NCBI GenBank assembly: GCA_047601445.1
Contig: JASGJH010000001.1
Location: 7,552,001 to 7,616,000, forward strand
Length of the DNA: 64,000 nt
Reading direction: 5' to 3'
Origin: Myxococcales bacterium
Lineage (GTDB): Bacteria; Myxococcota_A; Polyangia; Polyangiales; DASUME01
The notes beneath the pieces were generated by a model. It was not told the DNA's origin and ran no database searches. It saw only the letters and a list, made by a program, of their open reading frames with translations. Both the position numbers and the translations under genes were made by a program. Shown piece by piece: positions 5,875-19,673 of the stretch (position 1 is its first letter; every line of letters begins with the position of its first letter).

Positions 5875-6507
5875 ATGAGGAACACCGAAGCCAAGTTTTG
5901 GGACGACATTGCCGAGAAGTACGCCAAGAAGCCGGTGGCCAACGTCCAGGCCTTCGAGCGCAAGAAGGCCATCACCCGCGAGCAGCTGCGACCCGATTCC
6001 AAGGTCCTCGAGATCGGCTGCGGCACGGGCTCGCTCGCCCTGGACCTGTCGCGCTTCGCCGGCCACATCCATGCCATGGACCTCTCGGCCGAGATGATCC
6101 GCATCGGCGAGCAGAAAAAGAGAACCCAAGGCGTAACCAACGTCACCTTCCACGAGGGCACCCTCGACGGCCAGCTCCCCTTCCCAGGCGAGCGCTTCGA
6201 TAGTGTGTGGGCCTACTCCGTCTTCCATCTAGTTCGCGACCGCAAGCGTACGCTCGAGACCCTGTTCGACATTCTCGAGCCCGGCGGCTCTCTCATCTCA
6301 TCGAACATCTGCCTCGGCGACTCATGGGTGCCCTACGGCCCCGTCATCACGGTGATGCGCTGGTTCGGCAAGGCGCCTGTCGTCCATACCTACGACCGCG
6401 CCACGATTCACCGCGAGATGCGTGAGGCCGGTTTCGTCGACATCGAGGAGAAAGAGGTGGGCGCCGGGAAGACGGTCGCGTTCATCGTGGCGAAGAAGCC
6501 AAGCTAG
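5875..6507 (+). CDS. Class I SAM-dependent methyltransferase
   Basis: FWDDIAEKY; VLEIGCGTG motif I; DLSAEMI; LEPGG. Confidence 0.93.
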   Translation: MRNTEAKFWDDIAEKYAKKPVANVQAFERKKAITREQLRPDSKVLEIGCGTGSLALDLSRFAGHIHAMDLSAEMIRIGEQKKRTQGVTNVTFHEGTLDGQLPFPGERFDSVWAYSVFHLVRDRKRTLETLFDILEPGGSLISSNICLGDSWVPYGPVITVMRWFGKAPVVHTYDRATIHREMREAGFVDIEEKEVGAGKTVAFIVAKKPS

Positions 6508-6561
6508 GACTTCATACGCATTTTCGTTGAACACCCGGGCCGCCTGCGGGCACCCAGGTGC

Positions 6562-7743
6562 ATGAAGATCGGGTACCAAGGCAACTGGATCGGGTTGGAG
6601 CGCGTAATTCGTCGTGGGGCGCTGGCCTTCGTGCTGGCCGGTAGCGCCATCGGTTGCAACGACGACGAGCACCAGGATGACCCGCGGGAAGTCTCGAACG
6701 AAGACACTGCGCTGCTCGGATCGGAGCTGCGCACGCTGGCGGAGCAGGATCTCCAGGAAATGCAGGCCCTCGGTATGGGGATCACGGTGCAGTTGGCAGA
6801 CGGTCGTCTCGTCGAGGTCGCCGCCGGACGCATCGGCCCGAACGCCACGGACCCGCTGTACGACGTGGGAGCGACCCGGCAAATCCTGGGCAGCGTCACC
6901 AAGCTCTACACGGCCACCATGATCATGCAGCTCGTGGAGGAGGGTAGCCTCAGCCTGGACGACACCCTCGAGCCGTGGTTCTCGATTCCGAAGGCCGACG
7001 CGATCACGGTGCGCATGCTGCTGAGCCACACCAGCGGTCTGCGCGAGTGCCTCGAGGCGCTCACGCAGGAGGAAACTGCACAGCCATGGACGCCCATGCA
7101 GCTGCTGGACAAGGCGGTCGCGCTAGGCCCCTGGGCCGAGCCAGGCGGGAACGTCGCGCGCTACGCCAACACCAACTTCCTCGTGCTGGCCATGCTGCTC
7201 GAGAAGCTGACGGGAACCTCCTGGGAGCAGAACGTTCACACGCGCATCACCACGCCGCTCGGGCTCGTGCACACGGGCTCAGCTACCGAGCCGGGCGGTC
7301 GCGGCGATCTCGTCGAAGGCTGGTTGCACACGGAAGAGACGGGCTGGACCGCTGCCCTGGCCCTGACTGACCCGTCCGTCGGCTGGGGATACGGAGCGAT
7401 GGCCGCCACCAATCGAGAGCTCGCGCGATTCACCAAGGCCCTGTTTGCAGGAGAGCTGTTCGAGTCGCCGAGCACCCTGGCGCAGATGCGGCAGTTCGAC
7501 GCCGAGATCGACCCAACGTTGCTGTCGGACGGAGAACCGCCGTATCGCGTGGGCCTGGGCATGGTGCGCTACGAGATCGACGACTTGCAGCTCGAAGGTC
7601 ACGTCGGACACGTCGTTGGGTTCAACAGCGCGACCTTCCACGACCCTGCAACGGGTTCGCTGATCAGCGTGACCTCCAACGACGAAGACGAAGTGGCGGG
7701 GCTAACCGCCGTGAAGGTGGCGCAGCACCTCCGAAGCCGGTAG
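6562..7743 (+). CDS. Serine hydrolase, beta-lactamase class C / D-Ala-D-Ala peptidase family, probable lipoprotein
   Basis: GSVTK (SxxK), LLSHTSG, YANTN (YxN), GHVG; AIGC lipobox. Confidence 0.9.
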   Translation: MKIGYQGNWIGLERVIRRGALAFVLAGSAIGCNDDEHQDDPREVSNEDTALLGSELRTLAEQDLQEMQALGMGITVQLADGRLVEVAAGRIGPNATDPLYDVGATRQILGSVTKLYTATMIMQLVEEGSLSLDDTLEPWFSIPKADAITVRMLLSHTSGLRECLEALTQEETAQPWTPMQLLDKAVALGPWAEPGGNVARYANTNFLVLAMLLEKLTGTSWEQNVHTRITTPLGLVHTGSATEPGGRGDLVEGWLHTEETGWTAALALTDPSVGWGYGAMAATNRELARFTKALFAGELFESPSTLAQMRQFDAEIDPTLLSDGEPPYRVGLGMVRYEIDDLQLEGHVGHVVGFNSATFHDPATGSLISVTSNDEDEVAGLTAVKVAQHLRSR

Positions 7744-7896
7744 TTTGCTCGCGCCACGCTCACCGCGAAGCTGGTGGGGACGGTCTCGGCGCAGCCTATT
7801 GCGGAAAGAGTAAGGTCGCGGGCGCGGAACGGCTCTGAGGTTGGTTCACCCCGAGCGTGCGTGCATTTTTCGCGTCCACTCTGCGTTCATGGCTGG

Positions 7897-8448
7897 ATGA
7901 CCAAGCGCTTTCCGTGGCACGTGGGGCCCTTGCTGTTCGCGGTTTGGCTCCTTTCCGGAGCCTCGTCGGCGCGCGCTGACATTTGGGATGCAGGAAAGGG
8001 TACGTATCTCCCGTTCGGCCTGACAGCTTCCTACCTGCGCCTTCATGAAGGCGACGACAAGGTTCGCACCGGCAAGCTGGGGCTCGAGCTGAGCTGGGTG
8101 GAATACGACAGCGCCTGGTGGGGCGGCTATGCGGATGTGGCTTATGACTTCGCGGGGGAGCGTGTCTGGATGACCGCTGGTCCAGAGTTTGGACTGTTTT
8201 CTATCGGGCTGGACGCAGGGTTCGTGTACGTGCTGGACAAGGGGCGCGACGACATGGGCTTCAGGGTGCGCTTCGTGGTCAGCGTCTTTGAAAATGACGG
8301 GCAGATGCACCCAGATCGCCACCGTGTGCGTGAGTACTTCAAGAGCAGCACGATCTTGCTGACTTTAGGGGGCGGCGCGTTGTTGCGAAACGAGCCTCAG
8401 CGCTTCTTGGAGTTGGGCGCGCTGTTCAAGCTGAAGAACGAGCGGTGA
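7897..8448 (+). CDS. Hypothetical secreted protein, beta-strand rich (possible outer-membrane barrel)
   Basis: Signal peptide ending ARA; alternating aromatic/Gly strands. Confidence 0.65.
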   Translation: MTKRFPWHVGPLLFAVWLLSGASSARADIWDAGKGTYLPFGLTASYLRLHEGDDKVRTGKLGLELSWVEYDSAWWGGYADVAYDFAGERVWMTAGPEFGLFSIGLDAGFVYVLDKGRDDMGFRVRFVVSVFENDGQMHPDRHRVREYFKSSTILLTLGGGALLRNEPQRFLELGALFKLKNER

Positions 8449-8483
8449 GCGAGGCCGCCTTTGCGGTGAGGCATAGCGGGAGA

Positions 8484-9977
8484 CTACCAGTCGTGGATGC
8501 CGAGCCTCTCCAACTTCAGGTAGAGCTGATGCCGTGACAGCGCCAACATGCGGGCCGCCTGAGCTTTGTTGCCGCATGCTCTCCTCAAGGCCATGCGTAT
8601 GTGGCGCCGTTCGATCTCGGAAAGCGGAGCAACCTCCAGGTCCTCGCTAGCGGTGCGGTTCGGAGCGTGGGAGAGCGTCGGTTCGAACGTGGCGCTGTCG
8701 CACATGCGGATGTGGCGCGGAAGATGGCGTGGTTCCACCAGGATGTCGGGCGCGGCGGCGCAGCAGTGCTCCACCACGTTGCGGAGCTCGCGTACGTTGC
8801 CAGGCCACGAATAGCGCGAGAGCTCGTGCAAGCTCGTCGCCGAGAATTCGGCGGGCACGCGGTGACCCTGGTCGCGCAGCTCAGCCACGAAATGGGCGAG
8901 CAAACAGGGGAGGTCCTCGAGTCGCTCGGAGAGGCGCGGAAGCTCGATCCGGTGGGCGCTCAGACGATAGAACAGGTCGGCTCGCAAGGTGCCGTGTCGG
9001 ACCGCCTCCGAGGGGTCGCGGTTGGTGGCAGCGATCACCCGCGCGTGGACCGGGGCCTCGCGCATGCCCCCGACGGGACGCACTGACTTTTGCTCCAGGG
9101 CGCGCAGCAACTTGGGCTGGGTCGCGAGCGGCATCTCGGTGATCTCGTCCAGAAACAGCGTGCCATTCCCGGCCGAGCGCATGATTCCCGGAACGCTGCC
9201 GCGGCTCCCCGTGAACGCGCCCTTTTCGTGGCCGAAGAGCTCGCTCTCGATGAGGTCGTGGGGGAGGGCGGCGCAGTTGACGGCGGCAAAGGGGGCGCTT
9301 TCATGGCCACCCAGGCGGTGCAGCGCACGGGCTACGAGTTCTTTGCCGGTGCCGCTTTCGCCCGTAATCAACACTGGACCTGGCGCGCAAGCAACGCCAG
9401 CGATCTGCGCGAACACGGCTTGCATGGCCGCGCTGCCGCCCACGAAGTCAGGCAAAAGGCTGTTCGGATCGGCGCTCTTTCCAGCTGGGGGCGGGCGTAG
9501 TCGTAGTCCGCTGTCGAGGTGTCTTTCCGCGTCAGGAAGTGCATAGGTCGCGGCGACCTGATGAGAGAGGGTGCGCCCGAGTTGCTCGACCACGTCTCGC
9601 CATTTCGGGTCTGGCACGGCCTTGTTCACGGCGACCTCGAATGCACGCATCACATCAAGGGTGTCCGCCAGTGCCAGGCCGCTCGCATGCAACTCGCCGA
9701 TGAGAGCCGAGACGTGAAGCTGCACGTCGCTCGCGCGCCCAGCGCTCAACGCCAGGAGCAGCGGCGAGAGCGCCTGCGCGAGGAGGGGGAGTAGGGGGTG
9801 CACTGCGGTTGGCAGCGCGGAGTACGACCCGAGCCAGGTACTGCGAAGCACGTCGAGCTCCCGCAGGAGCACGCGTGCGAGCAGCTGAACCTGCCGTGCG
9901 TCGGTTCCCGCTGCGCGCGCTTGGGTGCTCACGACGGTTCCTCCTTCTTGGTGCCCGTGCTTCTCGCTCGAAAGCAA
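8484..9977 (-). CDS. Sigma54-dependent enhancer-binding protein (Fis HTH) with a non-receiver helical N-terminal domain
   Basis: GESGTGKE Walker A, ELFGHEKGAFTGS, LFLDEI, WPGNVREL, GNKAQAARML HTH. Confidence 0.95.
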   Translation of the reverse strand: MLSSEKHGHQEGGTVVSTQARAAGTDARQVQLLARVLLRELDVLRSTWLGSYSALPTAVHPLLPLLAQALSPLLLALSAGRASDVQLHVSALIGELHASGLALADTLDVMRAFEVAVNKAVPDPKWRDVVEQLGRTLSHQVAATYALPDAERHLDSGLRLRPPPAGKSADPNSLLPDFVGGSAAMQAVFAQIAGVACAPGPVLITGESGTGKELVARALHRLGGHESAPFAAVNCAALPHDLIESELFGHEKGAFTGSRGSVPGIMRSAGNGTLFLDEITEMPLATQPKLLRALEQKSVRPVGGMREAPVHARVIAATNRDPSEAVRHGTLRADLFYRLSAHRIELPRLSERLEDLPCLLAHFVAELRDQGHRVPAEFSATSLHELSRYSWPGNVRELRNVVEHCCAAAPDILVEPRHLPRHIRMCDSATFEPTLSHAPNRTASEDLEVAPLSEIERRHIRMALRRACGNKAQAARMLALSRHQLYLKLERLGIHDW

Positions 9978-10065
9978 GCTAACGGTGAGGACCGCCGAAA
10001 CTCAAGTCATGCTGGATTCATCCGAGCAAATAGTGGGGTGGCAAGCAGGCTTGACGCGCGCGGGC

Positions 10066-10887
10066 CTAGAGGTCGTCATTCGCGGCCATCGCTCCACTCA
10101 TACTCCCGTCGAGCGACGCAATCATACTGACGCGCATGCGGTCGAACGACTCGCTCAGATCCCGGACTTCCTGGGTGCCTTGGCTGCGAAACTGCACGTT
10201 CAAATTGCCCGTGCTCATCACCCGTGCTGCCTCGGCCAACTCCTGGATTGGTCGCGCGATGGTGGCACGGGCCAGCCAGCCGCCGAGTGCGACCAAGACC
10301 AGTCCGAGAAAGAGGGCCACACCTTGCACGACGTAGAGAGTCGCTACCTTACTCTCAGAGTCTGCTTGCATCAGAGAGACTGCGCCGTCCATGGCCTCCA
10401 GCAGCTGCAGATTGGTGTCCATGATGGCATCGACGTCGGGGGTGCTCTTGCCGTGAGAGGCCAAGACGGCGTTCAGATGAGTCTTGAATGCGGACCACTT
10501 GCCCTCCACGATGTCGAGCTGCTTGCGGATCTCCTCCGTGGCCGCAGGGGGCGTCTGCCGCATCTTCGTCATGTCCAGGTTCGTCGGTGCCGAGCCGCCG
10601 TCGCGCAGTGCGAACAAGGTGGACTCGAAGACCCGCATGGTGTGCCGCAAGACGTCTCGATACTCGCTCACCTGTTCTTCTCGTCCTGCGGCCGCCGCAT
10701 TGGCGAGCTGCACGCCTTCCTTGGTCATGCGCTGCGTGAGCATTCTCTGGCGGCCTGCCAGGTTGACGATGAGACCGTCGTCCTTTTGGGTCTGCAGTAC
10801 CTGAAAGCTGGCAGCGACCACGCCGCTGAGCAGTACGAGGAAGGCAGCGAAGATCAGCAGCATTCTACCTTGGATTGTCGTCAACAT
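10066..10887 (-). CDS. Membrane sensor: TM - NarX/PilJ-type periplasmic domain - TM - HAMP, no output domain
   Basis: IVNLAGRQRMLTQRMTKE P-box-like motif; two TM helices; IARPIQELAEAA...GNL...EVRDLSESFDRM HAMP; stops about 20 aa later. Confidence 0.85.
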   Translation of the reverse strand: MLTTIQGRMLLIFAAFLVLLSGVVAASFQVLQTQKDDGLIVNLAGRQRMLTQRMTKEGVQLANAAAAGREEQVSEYRDVLRHTMRVFESTLFALRDGGSAPTNLDMTKMRQTPPAATEEIRKQLDIVEGKWSAFKTHLNAVLASHGKSTPDVDAIMDTNLQLLEAMDGAVSLMQADSESKVATLYVVQGVALFLGLVLVALGGWLARATIARPIQELAEAARVMSTGNLNVQFRSQGTQEVRDLSESFDRMRVSMIASLDGSMSGAMAANDDL

Positions 10888-12664
10888 GCGGGGCGTTCCT
10901 TTCTGAATAGGGGGCGCCCTCCCGAAGGCGCCGTAGCAGGCAGAGGAGGTCGGCGGGAGGCCAAGCGGTGGGACGCTTGCGCAGTTCACTCGGCACGTCT
11001 TGCACGTGGGTCAACGCGGCCGCTTGCGCGTGTGCACCTCGCACGGACCACGTGGTTACGATGCGCTGCTGCGCGGCCGCCGCCACCAGCACGCTGCTTT
11101 GGGCGAGCTCCGGCCAGGGCATGCTTCCCTGCGCGCAGACGTGCTGCAGTAGTCGTGCCGCGTCAGGCGAAAAGAAGTAGCGATCCGCGGTGGCGGCAGT
11201 AGCCCACCGTGCCAAGCGAACCGAGAAGATACCTGGTGCCAGCCCGTCCTCGCCCATGCGGAGGCTGTGCGACCCGTCGTCTTCAGGCGGTCCCCACTCC
11301 TCGTCCAGGGTGGTGACCTGCACCGTGCTGATCCCGAGGCCTGCGACGCCCGCAGCCAGCTCGCGCAGCTCGAGCACTTGCCGCGCATCCAGGCCCCGAG
11401 GGCACGAGACCCAGAGGAGTGGCAACCGGCCAGAACTCTCGAGCACGCCGATCTCCATCAGAGCCTTGCCGACCTGTTCGAGCGAGCCTTCCGCGGTCAT
11501 GCCGAGCGCCTGGGTGAGCATCGCCAGCGTGCTCCCCAGCCCCCGCTGGACGGTGAGGCGTGCCAGCACCGTGCAGTTGTCCGGTGTGCCGCGGCAGGCA
11601 GCTTCGAGTACCAGCTCGGCGTGGCGAGGGGCCCGCGCGCACACGCGAATCAAGGGCGTGCGCGCCTCGAACAGCCTCTGCAGCGCCTCTCGGGTCTCAT
11701 GCTCCAGGCCTTCGTCCAGGCTGGCCTGGAGCGCCCGCTCGAGGCCATTGGGTACGAAGGGCTGGACCTGCCTCGGATCGGGTCGGATCGAGCTGGCCCC
11801 GCGCCCCTTCTCGCGCGCGGGATCCTGCGCCACCTCGGCCAGCTCCCTCGACAATTCGCTCCCAGAGTTCGGTCTTTGTCCGGGGTCCTTGGCCAGCATC
11901 GCGAGGAGAAGCTCGCTCACGCCCCGCGGAAGATGCGGCGGTAGCTTCGGCGTCAGCTCGAGGTGCGCGCCCCTCAGCTGCTGCAGATCCGGCAGGGGAA
12001 ACGGTACCCGCCCGACCAGCATGAAGTAGAGACATGCCCCCAGGCTGTACACGTCCGAGGCTGGACTCGGGGGGCCATCGCGCCACAGTTCGGGCGCCAG
12101 AAAGGCCGGTGTGCCCACGACCGGCAGCAGTCCAACGCTGTCGCCCGGGCGCTCCAGCGCCAGGCCAAAATCAGCGATTTTGACTTGTCCGTAGCGGGTG
12201 ACCAGCAGGTTGTGCGGCTTGATGTCCCGATGGATGATCCGCTCCTGGTGCGCATAGCTGAGACCGGACGCAGCCTGGCAGATCAACTCCAGCGCTTCCG
12301 CCAGCGGCAAGGGGCCCGTGCGTTGGACGCGAGTCTGAACACTGCCTCCGCCCACGTACTCGTAGACGATGAACCAAAGACCCTTGTGGCGCCCAGCATG
12401 GTAGACGCGCACCACGTGGGGATGCTCGAGCTTGGCGGCGATACGGGCTTCTTCGACGCCGCGCGTTTCACCGATCCGCCCGCTGCGTGCAGTCTTGAGC
12501 GCGACGTAGCGCCCGAGCAGGGAGTCGCGCCCGAGCAAAACGGTTCCTTCACCGCCGCGCCCGAGGTTTCCCTCGATCACGTAGTTTCCAATCAGCGTGC
12601 CCGTTGCGATGGACAGCCCGTCGTCCACTCTCTGCTCCGCCTCGGCTAGATCTGAAGTCACCAT
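10865..12664 (-). CDS. Hanks-type Ser/Thr protein kinase with C-terminal degenerate ExeA-like AAA domain
   Basis: LGRGGEG, VALK, HRDIKPHN, DFG, GTPAFLAPE, SDVYSLG; C-terminal half resembles ExeA/GspA without Walker motifs. Confidence 0.9.
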   Translation of the reverse strand: MVTSDLAEAEQRVDDGLSIATGTLIGNYVIEGNLGRGGEGTVLLGRDSLLGRYVALKTARSGRIGETRGVEEARIAAKLEHPHVVRVYHAGRHKGLWFIVYEYVGGGSVQTRVQRTGPLPLAEALELICQAASGLSYAHQERIIHRDIKPHNLLVTRYGQVKIADFGLALERPGDSVGLLPVVGTPAFLAPELWRDGPPSPASDVYSLGACLYFMLVGRVPFPLPDLQQLRGAHLELTPKLPPHLPRGVSELLLAMLAKDPGQRPNSGSELSRELAEVAQDPAREKGRGASSIRPDPRQVQPFVPNGLERALQASLDEGLEHETREALQRLFEARTPLIRVCARAPRHAELVLEAACRGTPDNCTVLARLTVQRGLGSTLAMLTQALGMTAEGSLEQVGKALMEIGVLESSGRLPLLWVSCPRGLDARQVLELRELAAGVAGLGISTVQVTTLDEEWGPPEDDGSHSLRMGEDGLAPGIFSVRLARWATAATADRYFFSPDAARLLQHVCAQGSMPWPELAQSSVLVAAAAQQRIVTTWSVRGAHAQAAALTHVQDVPSELRKRPTAWPPADLLCLLRRLREGAPYSERNAPHVDDNPR

Positions 12665-12676
12665 GTGCCGAGCAGC

Positions 12677-13369
12677 TCACACGCGCAGCGGTTGACGCAG
12701 CGCACGCGCGGCCTCGATAAAACTCTGCTGGCGTTCGGGGTTGGGAATCTTGGCCGCCAGCCGCGTCAGGAAATCGTTGAACTGCCCGTGGCGCAGTGTG
12801 CGCGCGGTGACGCCCAGTGCCGCCAGTTGCTGCTTGAACAACACCTTTGCCGCCGGACCCGTGTAGTTCACGTAGACTCCGAGCATCTGCACGACCAGCG
12901 CCTTACCCACGGCGTCCGGTGGCACCTGCTCGCCGTAGGCGCCGCTCGAGCGCGACGTCAGGTCGGCTCCCTGGGTGAGCGAGCGGCTCACCTCGGGCGC
13001 CTTGCCCGACGCCAGCACACTCGAGGGCTCGGCGCGTGCCAGATTGAGCGCCAACACGTTCAGGGCGACGTGCAGCATCGTGATGTTCACGTCGGGGGTC
13101 GTGAGCGCGAGCACGGTGTAGGAGTCGAGTCGGCGCAGCAGGATGCCGCCGCCTTCGCAGTTCGCGAAGAACCCATCGACCCGGCCATCGTTCAGCGAGC
13201 CGAAAATGTCGAACGAAGACGCCAGGCGGCGCGTCACCTCGGTGAGGAGGATGGCCTCGTAGGGGGCGGGCAGATTGTTGGTCACACAGCGACCTGCGCC
13301 ATCGAACAGCGCCACTCCGCGTACCCCTTCGGCTTCCGACAACGATGCTAACGGTATGCTCACAGTCAT
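12677..13369 (-). CDS. Roadblock/LC7 (MglB-like) domain protein with C-terminal helical domain
   Basis: LSEAEGVRGVALFDGAGRCV...GGILLRRL..YTVLALT..DVNITML; ATG overlaps the upstream TGA (ATGA). Confidence 0.75.
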   Translation of the reverse strand: MTVSIPLASLSEAEGVRGVALFDGAGRCVTNNLPAPYEAILLTEVTRRLASSFDIFGSLNDGRVDGFFANCEGGGILLRRLDSYTVLALTTPDVNITMLHVALNVLALNLARAEPSSVLASGKAPEVSRSLTQGADLTSRSSGAYGEQVPPDAVGKALVVQMLGVYVNYTGPAAKVLFKQQLAALGVTARTLRHGQFNDFLTRLAAKIPNPERQQSFIEAARALRQPLRV

Positions 13370-14748
13370 CTCCCTTGGCCTGAGGCGATCTTCTTCAGCA
13401 CCGCCATCGGATTCTTGTTCGCTCCACCCATCACCAGCAGGAAGCCGAAGTCCTCGTTGACCACGTACCAGTTGGAGCTGCCCATCGAGATGCACCACGA
13501 CTCGGGTTCTCCCAGTCCGAGCTCCGCTGCGGCCTCACCGAGCTGACGCGCTGCGAGCGCAGCCACCGCGCAGCCAGTCTCGGCGTCCATCTCGCCTTCA
13601 TTGGCCACCACGCTTCCATCTCGCTCGGCGCGTGCCGCGGCGCGCAGTGTCGGAGCGCGCTGCAAGACCTCACCGAGGGCGACCTCATTCTTTGCCGTAT
13701 TGCTTGCGTTCACGGTCTTCTCCTTCTCCTGCGGCGCGTTCGGCGCGCGGGCTGGCTCCTTCGAGCTCGTCGGGTTCGTTGCCTGAGGCACCTGCGGCGT
13801 GGCTGACGCGCCCGCTCGGGCAGAGGATGCGCCGCCGGAAAAGGGCGTAAGATTCGACGTGCGGACGGTGTTGGAGCGCGATTCAGGGCTCGCTCGCGGA
13901 GCGGGCGTGGGCGAGGCTGGCGCTTTCTGTCCGCGCAGAGGTGGCAACCCTGCGGCCAGGGCGGTCGTCGTGGGGGCCGCCTCTCTCGACCGCAGATCAA
14001 GCTGCACGATGCCCGACGGATCCCCGGAAATCGCGGCCATGTTGGGCGCCTTGGCAAAGCGTCCCATGCTCCGAGATGCCCGTTCGTCGGCGATGCGCAC
14101 GGCGTCGAGGAGCAGTTGCTCGAGGCTGCCAGTGAGGTTGGCGGGTAGCGCCACTCCGGTCAAAGACTCGCAGTGGATGTCGGCATCCTCCAGCAACGCG
14201 AGTCGAGAGAAGGCTTCCACACCCTCGCCGAGCTCGTCGTTGGCCCAGGTGACATCGCCAGCTTCAATCACGATGCGCCCGTGGCTACCGAGGCCGTTGG
14301 AGACGGAAAGACCGACGCTGCGACGGGTCAGCGCCGCGAGCTGAAGGTAGTCGGCGACCGTAAAGACGGAAGCTGGTGGCGGGAGCGTTCTTACACGCTC
14401 GAGTCGCCGCTTCACGAGTTCGCGAAAGGCCGCGCCGTCAACCGGCTTCTGAATCACGTCGATGTTCGAATTCTCCGGCAGCTCAGGGCGAATCCCGACC
14501 TCCCCGGCCACGAAGATCACGGGGATCTTGAGGCCGCGGCTCGCCAACTCCGGCAGCAGATCGAGGCCCGACCCGTCGGGCAGAGAGAGCCCAGCGACCA
14601 CGAGGCGTGGCATCGTTGCGTCGAGTGCATCGATGGCCTCTTGAATGCCCCTCGCTTCGACCACGGAGATGGCCTGATGCGTGAGCAGATGCCGGCTGAG
14701 CGTTCCCCTGAGCACGATTTCATCCTCGAGGAGAAGAACTTGGTCCAT
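13366..14748 (-). CDS. Atypical receiver + DUF4388/PatA_N-like + Pro-rich linker + roadblock/LC7 domain protein
   Basis: VLLLEDE...SLPDGSGLDL...KP receiver; FTVADYLQLAAL...GRIVIEAG DUF4388-like; C-terminal LRAAARAERDGSVV...LGEAAAELGLG roadblock-like. Confidence 0.82.
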   Translation of the reverse strand: MDQVLLLEDEIVLRGTLSRHLLTHQAISVVEARGIQEAIDALDATMPRLVVAGLSLPDGSGLDLLPELASRGLKIPVIFVAGEVGIRPELPENSNIDVIQKPVDGAAFRELVKRRLERVRTLPPPASVFTVADYLQLAALTRRSVGLSVSNGLGSHGRIVIEAGDVTWANDELGEGVEAFSRLALLEDADIHCESLTGVALPANLTGSLEQLLLDAVRIADERASRSMGRFAKAPNMAAISGDPSGIVQLDLRSREAAPTTTALAAGLPPLRGQKAPASPTPAPRASPESRSNTVRTSNLTPFSGGASSARAGASATPQVPQATNPTSSKEPARAPNAPQEKEKTVNASNTAKNEVALGEVLQRAPTLRAAARAERDGSVVANEGEMDAETGCAVAALAARQLGEAAAELGLGEPESWCISMGSSNWYVVNEDFGFLLVMGGANKNPMAVLKKIASGQGR

Positions 14749-14842
14749 GCGCGACTCTCCCTGACCACCGAAATGGCGGGCAAGGCAGTGTGCCCCGCCC
14801 AGCTCCCGCTCCTCGCCTCGACGAGATGGCGGGAGGCATCGG

Positions 14843-14858
14843 TGCACGGCGCGCGCCA
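14843..14858 (-). promoter_or_regulatory. Candidate sigma54 -24/-12 promoter for the signalling cluster
   Basis: Minus strand TGGCGCGCGCCGTGCA has GG-N10-GC spacing, about 95 bp upstream of ATG 14748; chance match possible at this GC content. Confidence 0.35.
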
Positions 14859-15160
14859 ACTCCGTGGGCGATGCGTGCCGTCGCGAAACTGCCCGACTTT
14901 CCTGGAAGACCAACAGACGGTCTGCACGCTACGAGGCCTTCACAGGCTGGTTGCTCGCTCCGGCGAGTGTCCCGATCGGAACACTCGGCTGCGATCGGTA
15001 CACTCCCGGCGCGTCTTACCGAAACAGTCGAGCACGAGAGTGTAAGGTCCGTCTGCAAGCGGGAGCCGCGTGAGCAGTGTCCCTTGGGCTAGGCCGTATT
15101 GTCGGACCCAATGCACAGTTTGGGTCAGAGCACCTGCCCCGTGGGGGTAGGGTTCACAGC

Positions 15161-17101
15161 ATGGGCCGATCCGGAAGTCGGACCGAGGACGCCGGCGAGA
15201 CCAGTTTCCGCACGCTCTGCGAAACCTGCGGAGTCGGGTTTTGGCACATCGATAAGGCTGGCCGCACCGTCTACGTGAACGCCGCCATGTGCGCGCTGCT
15301 CGAAGCGGATTCGGCGGCCGAACTCGAGGGCGTCGGATACCACCGGTTCTTCACGGAAGAGAGCCTGGTACGCATGCGCGAGGAGCACGCCAAGCGGACG
15401 ACCGGCGCGCCCTCGACCTACGAAGCGGTGCTGATCGGGTTGCGTGGCGGACGTCGCAGCGTGGTGATCTCGGGCGCTCCGCTCACGGACAGCGCCGGCG
15501 AACTGCAGGGACTGATCGGAACTTTCACGGACATCACCGCGCGCAAGCAAGCAGAACTTGCGCTGCAGGACAGCGAGAATCGGTTGCGCTCCGTTTTTGC
15601 TGCTTCCAACGATGCCATCGCCGTCGCGCGCGCCGGCGTGTTGATGATGGTCAATCCGGCACTCTTGCGCATGTTCCGCTGCATCGACGAAGACGAACTG
15701 CGCGGACACTCGGTGCTCGAACTGATTACCCCCGCTTCGCGCGAGGATGTTGCCGAGGGCGTGCGCTTGCGCGCGGAAGGCAAGCAGCAGGTCGGCCACT
15801 ACTTCACGACCGGGATTCGCCGCAATGGCGAGGAGTTCCCTCTCGAGGTTCGCGCCGCCGTCTACCAGGAGGCCGACGCGTTTTACTCGGTGGCCATCCT
15901 GCGCGACAACACCGAGCGCATGGCGCTGGAGGAGCAACTTCGGCAGTCACAAAAAATGGACGCCCTCGGCCGCCTGGCAGGCGGCGTCGCCCACGACTTC
16001 AACAACTTGTTGATGGTGATGATGGGCTGTTCGGAGATGATCCTGGCCGACCAGAGCGCGAGCGCAAAGGTTCGACACAACGCGCAGCTCACGGTGTCGA
16101 CCGGCGAGCGCGCGGTGAGTCTGACCCGTCAGTTGCTGGCCTTGAGCCGCCGCCAGGTCATCGATCCCAGAGTCATCGATCTCGACGGGGTCGTGCAGGA
16201 GATGGCGGACATGCTGCGCCGACTGCTCGGGCCCCAAATCGAGCTGGTGGTGAAGCGGGGCGACGCGACCGCGCGCGTGAAGGCCGATCCGGGGCAGATC
16301 CAGCAAGTCGTGATGAACCTTTGCGTGAACGCGCGTGACGCCATGCCTGAAGGCGGACGCATCACGCTGGAGACCGAGCACGTGCGCTTGAGTGAAGGGC
16401 AGCTGCGCTCGTTCGTGAATACGCCCGCCGGCGACTTCATCCGCCTGGCCGTCAGCGACACGGGGCATGGGATGGACGCGGCCACGCAGGAACGCCTTTT
16501 TGAGCCCTTCTTCACGACCAAGCCGCTCGGTGAGGGGACAGGACTCGGCCTCTCCACGGTCTACGGCATCGTCAAGCAGAGCGGCGGCCATATCACGGTG
16601 AACAGCTCCGTTGGCGAGGGCAGTGTGTTCTACGTGTACCTTCCGCGCGTCGACGCGCCGCTCGCGGCGCCGCCCGCGGCGCGAAGCATTCCACCAGCTC
16701 CCCACGCATCCGATCTGACCGTACTCCTGGTCGAGGACGAGGCTTCCGTTCGGGCGCTGGTCGGGACCTTTCTCGGTGCCATTGGCTACAAGGTGATCGC
16801 CGCCAGCTCGGGCGAGGAGGCGCTAAGTCTGTTTGCGCGTCGACAGGCGGTAATCAAGCTCGTGGTGACCGACATGCTCATGCCGGGCATGTCGGGCGCC
16901 GTGCTCGCCAACGAGCTCGATCGTGTGGCTCCCGGCCTGCCGATTCTGTTCGTGTCGGGCTATCCCAGAGACAGCAGCTCCACCCTCGTCACCGCGCGTC
17001 CACGCTCGGCATTTCTCGCCAAGCCGTTCACCCCGTTGCAGCTGAAGTCGCAGCTGCAGCAGCTGCTCGCTGCGGGCGCCGACGGCGGTCGGTTGGAATG
17101 A
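15161..17101 (+). CDS. PAS-PAS hybrid histidine kinase/receiver (CckA-like)
   Basis: Two PAS/PAC domains, LAGGVAHDFNNLL H-box, NLCVNARDAM, FEPFFTTK.GEGTGLGL, receiver with VVTDMLMP. Confidence 0.95.
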   Translation: MGRSGSRTEDAGETSFRTLCETCGVGFWHIDKAGRTVYVNAAMCALLEADSAAELEGVGYHRFFTEESLVRMREEHAKRTTGAPSTYEAVLIGLRGGRRSVVISGAPLTDSAGELQGLIGTFTDITARKQAELALQDSENRLRSVFAASNDAIAVARAGVLMMVNPALLRMFRCIDEDELRGHSVLELITPASREDVAEGVRLRAEGKQQVGHYFTTGIRRNGEEFPLEVRAAVYQEADAFYSVAILRDNTERMALEEQLRQSQKMDALGRLAGGVAHDFNNLLMVMMGCSEMILADQSASAKVRHNAQLTVSTGERAVSLTRQLLALSRRQVIDPRVIDLDGVVQEMADMLRRLLGPQIELVVKRGDATARVKADPGQIQQVVMNLCVNARDAMPEGGRITLETEHVRLSEGQLRSFVNTPAGDFIRLAVSDTGHGMDAATQERLFEPFFTTKPLGEGTGLGLSTVYGIVKQSGGHITVNSSVGEGSVFYVYLPRVDAPLAAPPAARSIPPAPHASDLTVLLVEDEASVRALVGTFLGAIGYKVIAASSGEEALSLFARRQAVIKLVVTDMLMPGMSGAVLANELDRVAPGLPILFVSGYPRDSSSTLVTARPRSAFLAKPFTPLQLKSQLQQLLAAGADGGRLE

Positions 17102-17540
17102 AAGGCGCTGAAACTGACGAGCACATGAGCTGCTCTGAAGTTGGTTGGCCCATCCCTCCATTCCAACACAATCAGGTCCCGTCGGAGCATCGGCTCCCTT
17201 GCTCACGACGCACCTCACGCGTTGACAGAATGGACACGGCGCTCTGACAGGACCGACCCCCGGCTCGGCCGCGGTGACACGACGCCACCACGGCACTGGT
17301 GCAGTTGGGAATGGGTGGTTCGGCTCCCCGTGCATGAGGGCGACTTTCGCGATGTTTGAAGATCGCTCTCTGTCCTGGCACCAACCATATGGAGAGCAGC
17401 TTGCCATTGAGCAAGCTATGATCTGCTGAGCAGCCGCCAACCAAAGCCCCTTTGGGCAACCCTCTCCCCAAGACCAATAGACGCCGGTGCCGGCGAATGC
17501 GTGTAGGCGACGCGTAGTTGGTTGGACAGCGGATCTAGAA

Positions 17541-17939
17541 ATGAGTCACGACTGCCATCGGAACTCGGACCTAGCAACATCCATCCTGCTGGTTGACGAT
17601 GACCCAGCGGTGCTGGATGCGACGCGGGCGATGCTAGATGACCTCGGATTCGAGGTGCATGCATGTCTTGGTGGAGCTGCCGCGCTCGAGGTCATCAAGG
17701 ACGCGTCCGTCCGCATTGATGCGCTCGTCAGCGATGTGGTCATGCCAGGACTCGACGGGCTCGCGCTCACGGACCTCATCGAAGTACTTCGACCGGGTAC
17801 ACCGACCATCCTCATGTCGGGTTATCCCTTCGATGGCTTGGCCGCGAAGCATCGACAGGTCGCGGTGCACTTTCTGCGTAAACCCTTTCGCATTGTCGAA
17901 CTGATCGAAGCGTTGGATCAAGCGTGTCCTACTCGCTAG
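17541..17939 (+). CDS. Single-domain response regulator
   Basis: ILLVDDD, LVSDVVMPGLDG, MSGY, FLRKPF. Confidence 0.9.
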   Translation: MSHDCHRNSDLATSILLVDDDPAVLDATRAMLDDLGFEVHACLGGAAALEVIKDASVRIDALVSDVVMPGLDGLALTDLIEVLRPGTPTILMSGYPFDGLAAKHRQVAVHFLRKPFRIVELIEALDQACPTR

Positions 17940-17991: not shown

Positions 17992-19311
17992 CTATGCCTT
18001 CTTTCCCGCGGCCGGTAACAGGATGACGAAATCAGTGCCAACGCCCTCGGTGCTGGTTGCGCGTATGCTTCCGCCGAGTCTTCTTATGATGCCGTAACAG
18101 GTTGAGAGTCCCAAGCCTGTCCCTTTGCCCTCGGCTTTCGTCGTGAAAAATGGCTCGAAGAGACGAGAAATCACGTGGGGTGGCATGCCCGTGCCCGTAT
18201 CACGCACCTTGATCTCGAGCCATCGCCCCCGGTGCGCTCGGTCGTCCTCCACGGCTTCGGCGCGCTCTCGTGCTTGAAGGTACAACGTACCGCCGTTCGG
18301 CATCGCGTCGCGCGCATTGATCGCAAGATTCAGGAGGACCTGCTCGACGTGCGTTGAACCCGCGATGATCGAAGGAAGCTCGCTCGGGATACCTACCTCC
18401 AGCCGTACGCTCGGGCCGAGCACGCGCGGAAGAAGATCGGCTAGGGCACACAAAGTGGCGCGCGAATCTATGATCGAGAGCTGCTCCGCTTCTTTGCGAG
18501 AGAATGCTAGGAGGCGCTTCGTAAGCTGGGTGGCATCCGCCGCTGCCTTGTCTGCTGCCTTGAGAATTTCGCTGGTGTGGCCAGCGAGGTTCTCGTTCAA
18601 CGAGGCTATCTGGATTGCCCCTTGGATCACCGTTAGCAGGTTGTTGAAGTCGTGCGCTACAGCTGCCGCCATGCGCCCGAGGGCGTCCATCTTCTGCGCC
18701 TGCTGGAGCTGTGATTCCAAAGCAACGGCCTGGCGTTCGCGGGTCACAACCTGCTTGAGCGCTCGCCTCGCGTTTCGGACCTGGATAGCCGAAAGGATTG
18801 CGGTTACCACGCATAGCGCAAGTCCATAGGTTGTTGCCGTCCCCCATGTTGCCGGGAGCTGCACTTCGTTGCGCGACACGACGCCCATCGCGATGACCGC
18901 GCCAGCGTTCAAGAAGGCGCTCACGATGACTCCCCGCAGTGGCAGCGTCGCCCCCGCCACGAACAAGGAGAACCCGACGAACGCAGGTCCCGGACCGATC
19001 TGTCGGTTGGCCGCCACTGCGGCGAAAACGGCTCCGGTCACGAGACAATTCAAGAGCACGGCCACCATTTGGCCGCGGCGTTCGTCCGTGGCCATGCGGT
19101 GCACGGCCGCGAACAACGGGGCGGCGAGCAGCGGCACGACCACCACTCGTGTGTCCATCCCGACCAAGAGGAGCGAAGCCGCGAGGACCAACGTAACGCA
19201 GGCAAATGCCAAGGCGATGGCGCGCACGTTGCGAACCCGGCGTCGACGATCGAGACGTTCGACCCGCGCGCGTACGTCATCGAGCTCTAGCGAGCTAGTT
19301 AGCGAGGCCAT
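17992..19311 (-). CDS. Membrane-bound sensor histidine kinase
   Basis: About 6 TM helices; AHDFNNLL, NLAINARDAM, DTGTGM, FFTTK.GKGTGLGL. Confidence 0.92.
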   Translation of the reverse strand: MASLTSSLELDDVRARVERLDRRRRVRNVRAIALAFACVTLVLAASLLLVGMDTRVVVVPLLAAPLFAAVHRMATDERRGQMVAVLLNCLVTGAVFAAVAANRQIGPGPAFVGFSLFVAGATLPLRGVIVSAFLNAGAVIAMGVVSRNEVQLPATWGTATTYGLALCVVTAILSAIQVRNARRALKQVVTRERQAVALESQLQQAQKMDALGRMAAAVAHDFNNLLTVIQGAIQIASLNENLAGHTSEILKAADKAAADATQLTKRLLAFSRKEAEQLSIIDSRATLCALADLLPRVLGPSVRLEVGIPSELPSIIAGSTHVEQVLLNLAINARDAMPNGGTLYLQARERAEAVEDDRAHRGRWLEIKVRDTGTGMPPHVISRLFEPFFTTKAEGKGTGLGLSTCYGIIRRLGGSIRATSTEGVGTDFVILLPAAGKKA

Positions 19312-19673
19312 GCTAGAGGCCGAGCCAGGTGGATGCACCCATTTTGCACGAGGTTCGACGGATGCTTCACCGTCCACCGATGCATATCAAGTGTCAGCAT
19401 ACTGCTTGCGGCGGGCCGGTCTCTCTTCTCCGGCATCAAGGAAACAGCGGCCGCCTTCGAGCGCTGCACGGGTCCAACCATTGACGAGGGGGCAGCATGC
19501 AGGAGAGCGCTCCCGGGCACTTGCTAGGTCGCCTGACGACGGGCGGTCAATGTTCGTGGCCATCGCAGTCACTCCCGTCGAGCACGCGACCAGGAGCGAC
19601 GCAGGAGAGGAATCCGCGATATCCGTCCCAACGTTTTTCGCCAAGGATCGCCGATGCCGCCGCAGTAAAGGGA

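Follow-up and report, generated by a model that had tools for sequence, protein, structure and literature searches.

Af1503 is a long-standing model for HAMP signalling. To our knowledge, the partners of HAMP receptors without an output domain remain an open question, and orphan roadblock proteins are largely uncharacterised. Both kinds of protein are encoded together in a five-gene operon of a Myxococcales bacterium, in a stretch of 64,000 nt (JASGJH010000001.1, positions 7,552,001 to 7,616,000; hereafter the window, whose positions serve as coordinates below). Gene D of this operon encodes a membrane receptor that ends after its HAMP domain, and the other genes encode two roadblock proteins (A and B), a Ser/Thr kinase (C) and a sigma54-dependent bacterial enhancer-binding protein (bEBP; E). 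How could such a receptor pass on a signal? The answer that we favour, with about even confidence, is that D is a nitrate receptor that signals by docking B and not by phosphotransfer, that the effector acts in trans and that E sets the expression of the operon.

Gene D (10887-10066, minus strand) encodes a 273-amino-acid (aa) protein, in which a PilJ domain lies between two transmembrane segments and is followed by HAMP, a Gly-rich linker and a conserved DDDL tail; Pfam identified PilJ and HAMP. HAMP is the only cytosolic domain, as in Af1503-type receptors, and D is the only one of the five proteins with hydrophobic segments: two were found in D and none in A, B, C or E. The 104 homologues of D (D included) had a median length of 271.5 aa and ended after HAMP, and 87/104 carried an acidic-plus-hydrophobic C-terminus of the DDDL type. 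This conserved length ruled out that D is a truncated methyl-accepting chemotaxis protein (MCP) or kinase, and the homologues mark HAMP as the receptor end as a trait of the family, not an accident of this genome.

The best Protein Data Bank (PDB) match of the D profile was McpN (6gcv). D contains the pattern [IVL]-[ND]-x-A-G-x-Q-R-M-L-[ST]-Q of the N-box, with the sequence VNLAGRQRMLTQ at residues 41-52 (10732-10767, minus strand), an exact fit to the McpN nitrate-binding pattern, and the exact N-box recurred in 87/104 homologues, D included. In McpN, nitrate binding is assigned to the N-box, and PilJ domains that lack this motif were shown not to bind the ligand (PMC6381276). D likely binds nitrate, as judged from this motif. 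The only other PilJ match to the D profile in the genome belongs to a PilJ-PAS His kinase (G000:C1:7043735-7046011, minus strand). Plasmid searches returned only MCP-type PilJ matches for D and no match for a B homologue.

Gene B (13369-12677, minus strand) encodes a 230-aa protein with a roadblock at residues 2-116 and a C-terminal four-helix STAC-like domain at approximately residues 150-225 (PF26309, presumably the same as DUF8082). B had no match in the local Pfam, and PF26309 was taken from precomputed annotation. In the AlphaFold2 model of B (pLDDT 83), residues 2-116 superimposed on MglB and Asgard roadblocks with Z 15-16 and a root-mean-square deviation of 2.0-2.3 Å over 112-118 residues (Foldseek E 5e-7), and the roadblock fold is firm in this model. 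The four C-terminal helices have a GPAA turn between helices 1 and 2. The best PDB match of the C-terminal profile was the STAC protein Af1502 (5a1q; E 0.003), in the LGPxxA region; the motif of B is TGPAA, compared with LGPx(x)A in STAC proteins.

With a roadblock and a STAC-like domain in B, the B/D pair resembles Af1502/Af1503 of Archaeoglobus fulgidus. Af1503-type receptors end in HAMP, according to the part of the source consulted, and their genes are coupled to those of STAC proteins that carry the LGPx(x)A motif (PMC4834066). The sequences of B and D carry the features that define the Af1503/STAC pair: a two-transmembrane receptor whose sole cytosolic domain is HAMP and a coupled four-helix STAC-type protein. 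Unlike in Af1503/Af1502, the STAC-like domain shares its chain with a roadblock, a PilJ domain with an N-box serves as the sensor, the receptor has a DDDL tail, genes for a PATAN protein, a kinase and a bEBP are added, and the operon has no transporter gene. A receptor-side search of 400 genomes of the class gave seven matches, four of them HAMP-terminated, one with another C-terminus and two in longer frames. In 4/4 of the HAMP-terminated matches, a STAC-bearing gene directly precedes the receptor. One of these is L082 (our locus handles are used where loci must be told apart), a roadblock-free two-gene unit of only STAC and a PilJ-HAMP receptor. Another variant, L084, consists of a HAMP receptor, two binding proteins and a PATAN-STAC protein.

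Could the cluster be in decay, or have come together by chance from broken modules? A pseudo-receiver in A, a dead AAA domain in C and a patchy distribution speak for this. However, identities are 40-60% with a fixed gene order over many contigs, catalytic residues are invariant, and receptor length, receptor tail and non-coding sites are conserved as well; these conservation data largely refute this reading, and we regard it as extremely improbable. The order A-B-C-D-E was complete in 9/19 close loci (44-52% identity), of which about seven are independent: the nine include two near-duplicate pairs, and L018 has only a partial A. Contig ends cut the remaining 10/19, which were consistent as far as they extend and included none that contradicts the order. 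The proposal in a preliminary description of this DNA that the genes form a conserved unit was thus borne out by co-location. One of the 28 rows of an alignment (A9) was mis-specified.

The five open reading frames show coding-type codon bias, with a G+C fraction at third codon positions of 0.76-0.83, and translation likely begins at 14748 in A, 13369 in B, 12664 in C, 10887 in D and 9932 in E. A and B overlap by ATGA, B and C are separated by 12 bp, and C and D overlap by 23 bp; the D/E gap is 88 bp to a TTG start of E and 133 bp to a GTG start. Pfam found REC and DUF4388 in A, Pkinase in C, and Sigma54_activat and HTH_8 in E. These frames, junctions and domains agree with the five co-directional genes reported earlier.

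Across wider distances, the B profile search found seven genome loci (Polyangiaceae, Sorangium or Myxococcota) and 32 metagenome loci. The family of B is broad (201 clusters at E<=1e-10), and its profile was matched in 16/400 other genomes of the phylum, some weakly. At distant loci, the roadblock pair persists, usually along with a kinase, and the sensor is swapped for a double PilJ (L007), dCache (L008) or Tll0287 domain (L028, L076), with the HAMP end retained. E was undetected in the flanks of distant cassettes that retain the receptor, both roadblocks and the kinase, and E is a lineage-specific add-on, so it is probably not the core output.

Gene A (14748-13366, minus strand) encodes 460 aa that comprise a receiver, here a pseudo-receiver, DUF4388, which we take to be the PATAN domain, a Pro/Ser/Thr-rich linker and a C-terminal roadblock (approximately residues 347-460). 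The C-terminus of A aligned with the B family at an hhalign probability of 62% (E 7.6e-5, 92 columns), all three PDB sequences found at E<1 with the last 114 residues were roadblocks, and the A homologue of L078 matched Robl_LC7 (E 3.5e-4); when the genome's own MglB was the sole sequence compared, the hhalign probability was only 6%. The roadblock assignment of A is thus weaker than that of B but consistent. Profile searches and the model together uphold the roadblock pair proposed earlier, firmly for B and less so for A.

The receiver of A admits a different input, in which a His kinase encoded elsewhere would phosphorylate A and D, B and C would only localise or modulate. This is very unlikely in our judgement. 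Asp53 is retained in 10/10 close A orthologues, a PAS-PAS-HisKA-HATPase-REC hybrid kinase (15077-17101, plus strand) is divergently adjacent to the operon, and the genome encodes the separate PilJ-PAS His kinase; all three favour dominant His-Asp input. However, the phospho-acceptor Asp and the Thr/Ser of a canonical response regulator are both lost here (D53G and T81A), with Gly at position 53 in this genome only, yet the operon and its promoter are intact. Many relatives, such as L076, L078 and L082, have no receiver at all, and His-kinase matches occurred at only 4/57 related loci, two of them near-duplicates. The last count also ruled out the divergent hybrid kinase as a dedicated partner. 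Pfam and related domain scans found no His kinase, MCP or GTPase domain among the five gene products, in line with the preliminary description, which left the hybrid His kinase next door unmentioned.

Gene C (12664-10865, minus strand) encodes a 599-aa soluble protein that joins a Hanks-type Ser/Thr kinase to an ExeA-like AAA domain, the latter degenerate. The kinase motifs are intact (Gly loop, VALK Lys, HRD-x-K-x-x-N, DFG and APE). The tail resembles ExeA/AAA_22 (Atlas TM 0.55-0.63), and the orthologue in L077 matches AAA_22; its Walker A motif is lost here and in close orthologues and retained in L077 and L078. Modules of the B type also occur fused with a SpoIIE phosphatase (P0169) and behind a Ser/Thr kinase (P0164), and PP2C genes lie upstream of A in L023, L033 and L036. 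These fusions and neighbours suggest Ser/Thr phospho-control of the module.

Gene E (9932-8484, minus strand) encodes a sigma54 enhancer-binding protein with a helical N-terminal domain, an AAA+ domain and a Fis-type helix-turn-helix. The GTG start at 9932, with an AAGGAGG ribosome site, gives 482 aa, and the TTG start at 9977 gives 497 aa. Its motifs are intact: GESGTGKE (Walker A), FLDEI (Walker B), GAFTGS, RADLFYR (arginine finger) and HTH_8. GAFTGS is a variant of the GAFTGA-type loop that is tolerated in bEBPs. E has no receiver. For its N-terminus, Atlas gave the globin-like RsbRD_N a score of 0.84, with the family on 18% of members; Pfam gave no match for RsbRD_N and fold comparison of a low-confidence model no clear match, so this assignment was left unconfirmed. 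Calling the modules of the cluster disabled, as had been done before, overstates their state, given that the receiver Asp is lost only here and that the motifs of the Hanks kinase and the bEBP are intact.

What does E act on? The palindrome TGTCCCGATCGGGACA (TGT-N10-ACA) was present upstream of A in 9/9 close loci, in one or two copies with 18-23 bp spacing where paired. This set holds the non-duplicate close loci with enough upstream DNA; the near-duplicates L014 and L020, and L011, with 110 bp upstream, were excluded. In the window, a strong copy, TGTTCCGATCGGGACA, lies at 14968-14983, and a weaker copy, TGTACCGATCGCAGCC, lies 19 bp apart on its upstream side, at 14987-15002. With a matrix built from the nine homologous loci, 14968-14983 ranked first of 9,502,586 genome positions, and the two copies together ranked first among six genome pairs. 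A predicted sigma54 -24/-12 promoter, TGGCGC-N6-TGC, an element common to the homologues, lies at 14844-14858 (minus strand). TGGCRY-N6-TGC was found within 120 bp of the A start in 8/9 homologues and in the window, compared with 107/20,000 random windows, and the ninth homologue has CGGCAC-N6-TGC. Since the window had been seen when the consensus was formed, the held-out genome G430 offers a cleaner test: the only site there without a mismatch is found upstream of the A orthologue, on a contig unused before, accompanied by another copy and by a sigma54 element.

E is present in six of the nine loci of the upstream set and the remaining three end before its position, so the predicted binder of the palindromes upstream of A is likely E. 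In 18 loci without E, the enhancer score was at most 16.5, although three of these begin inside the cassette and are uninformative. The conserved sigma54 promoter and the tandem palindromes, which include the top site of the genome, indicate that E probably drives its own operon, and rpoN is present in the genome. Autoregulation of this kind has a precedent in Myxococcus xanthus, as the part of the source consulted reports for nla28 (PMC9765219). The enhancer sits between A and the hybrid kinase, and no sigma54 element was found facing the kinase. A sigma70 scan returned no promoters, and terminator-like sites (7, compared with 3.5 +/- 1.8 in shuffles) were uninformative. A wider E regulon was rejected, as genome ranks 2-12 were all intragenic; ranks 2-3 lie inside an OmpA/TSP_3 gene and are read as Cys-Pro-Asp codons, yet they adjoin a second roadblock pair. 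Wherever an intergenic site in five other genomes came with a sigma54 element, it was upstream of A; G431 had two more intergenic sites without the element.

The preliminary description had instead made sigma54 transcription the output, with the membrane signal running from D through the roadblocks and kinase C to E. With the enhancer upstream of the operon, such a route would be a positive-feedback loop. In favour of the relay, E keeps its position in nine close loci, its helical N-terminal domain could take protein input in the absence of a receiver, kinase C is intact, and the enhancer precedes the operon. However, distant cassettes with D-like receptors, both roadblocks and the kinase were found without E, and no second strong intergenic target appeared in this genome or the five others, so the loop would only make more of itself. 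Moreover, the D/E gap is long (133 bp here and several hundred bp in some homologues), and E may have its own promoter. We consider the relay unlikely. Its most specific form, a nitrate-gated loop without His-Asp transfer or a GTPase that runs from the HAMP tail through STAC-roadblock, PATAN-roadblock and kinase to E and its own enhancer, appears distinctly unlikely. If true, receptors of the Af1503 type would gain their first defined output, and bacteria would have a switch made from a Ragulator-like roadblock heterodimer. With E missing from the flanks of distant cassettes and the operon as its only strong predicted target, E looks like an on-switch and at most a feedback arm, and the idea that the membrane signal has sigma54 transcription as its output is not supported as stated.

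In L080, an MglA-like GTPase fused to an A-type roadblock (8647-9747, minus strand) lies directly upstream of B, and the gene order is MglA-roadblock fusion, roadblock-STAC and then a kinase-DUF4388 gene; the MglA-like domain is 35% identical to the genome's MglA (E 3e-36). The operon in the window lacks the coupled small GTPase gene that defines an MglA/MglB module. The genome has mglBA and two further MglA-like genes, all outside the operon. The two MglA-like genes (G000:C1:1052577-1053947, L045:1294-2664, plus strand; and G000:C1:~2.015 Mb, L042:1300-2157, minus strand) encode C-terminal extensions and have no adjacent roadblock match; their products are candidate partners in trans. Given the L080 fusion and mglBA in trans, the independence from GTPases assumed earlier finds no support as stated. 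The most probable end effector is a GTPase of the MglA type, or else some other NTPase, acting in trans.

Building on the observed gene content, synteny, folds, catalytic motif states and conserved promoter and enhancer sequences, we infer each binding step of the docking scheme that we favour. Nitrate would bind at the PilJ dimer axis of D through Arg48, which corresponds to McpN R61. HAMP, a short coiled-coil extension and the DDDL tail would form the docking site, and in nitrate-bound D the HAMP and tail would alter their hold on the STAC-like domain of B. The roadblock of B would pair with that of A and thereby recruit the PATAN/receiver protein to the membrane. Phosphorylation of components by kinase C, whose dead AAA domain would act as a scaffold, would tune the complex, and the final output would be the GTPase or other NTPase in trans, acting in motility or polarity. 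E would set the amount of module made.

Several observations weigh against this scheme. Nitrate binding by the D family is a prediction from the N-box. The NasA-like genes of this genome scored below NCBIfam cut-offs and were absent among the intergenic enhancer sites listed. The STAC match of B is short (28 columns, E 0.003), and the input domain of E has no family assignment. The enhancer consensus came initially from visual inspection of a sequence set with the window in it, and the site and E co-occur within one clade in a genome with many other bEBPs (50 tblastn matches), so another bEBP could be the binder. A GTPase occurs at 1/57 related loci only, which leaves the GTPase output weakly supported. 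Finally, the operon was found in 0/40 of the nearest genomes, including 0/9 of the same genus, and is patchy in distribution.

Several parts of the system are already known: the Af1503/STAC pair, PATAN beside roadblock genes, N-box sensors and autoregulated enhancer-binding proteins. McpN of Pseudomonas aeruginosa and NarX/NarQ share with D the PilJ domain, the exact N-box with its nitrate-binding Arg and the transmembrane-sensor-transmembrane-HAMP layout, within what the source consulted in part covers (PMC6381276); unlike in these proteins, no MCP or kinase domain follows HAMP in D. For MglA/MglB, the portion of PMC4316618 consulted records that no orphan MglB was characterised as of 2014 and that PATAN proteins are encoded beside roadblock genes. 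The operon shares the roadblock fold and the PATAN domain adjoining roadblock genes with such systems, and one relative has an MglA-like domain, but its two divergent roadblocks are each fused, and a receptor, a Ser/Thr kinase and a bEBP take part without a GTPase. The CvnABCD conservons likewise combine a HAMP membrane sensor and a roadblock in one operon, as the consulted part of their source describes (PMC13343842). Unlike these, the five genes encode no CvnA kinase domain, CvnC or CvnD GTPase; HisKA, HATPase and GTPase domains, of which conservons have the CvnA kinase domain and the CvnD GTPase as hallmarks, are all missing. With nla28S-nla28, the operon shares an enhancer-binding protein, here predicted, that activates its own operon through a sigma54 promoter and tandem upstream sites (PMC9765219, seen in part), whereas E has neither a receiver nor a cognate His kinase.

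The full combination was not found described in the literature searched, which did not extend to supplements, Makarova 2006 or Korycinski 2015, and the neighbourhood table of PMC4316618 could list related loci; the earlier statement that this is not a described system stands within that literature. The STAC-like domain, the N-box and the upstream enhancer are additions to the earlier account. What appears new is a predicted ligand and a putative self-targeted sigma54 circuit added to an Af1503/STAC-type pair. This variant offers three handles absent from the generic cassette: nitrate as the predicted ligand, the HAMP-DDDL tail and STAC-roadblock as a candidate docking pair, and a built-in reporter in the defined sigma54 promoter and enhancer. 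Input, relay and transcriptional read-out could thus each be tested in a heterologous host, and the likely self-activation of the operon makes the output of enzyme-less receptors testable.

Other observations concern relatives and neighbours. Genes for the ammonium transporter Amt lie directly beside roadblock or roadblock-STAC genes in L074, L075 and L083, a second hint of a nitrogen-related input that fits the link of STAC to transporters. In L079, a gene for an Fe-hydrogenase-like [4Fe-4S] protein (6251-8814, plus strand) is followed by a roadblock-STAC gene paired with a roadblock gene, and a second complete kinase cassette lies opposite; this is possibly a redox or H2 sensor variant. The genome also has a second PATAN-roadblock and roadblock pair (G000:C1:2815204-2816952; L089:7204-8952, plus strand), which is smaller and lacks STAC and receptor; similar pairs occur in L083, beside an Amt gene in two frames, and in L086. 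Beyond the hybrid kinase, the window contains a stand-alone receiver (17487-17939, plus strand) and then a convergent membrane His kinase (17992-19377, minus strand).

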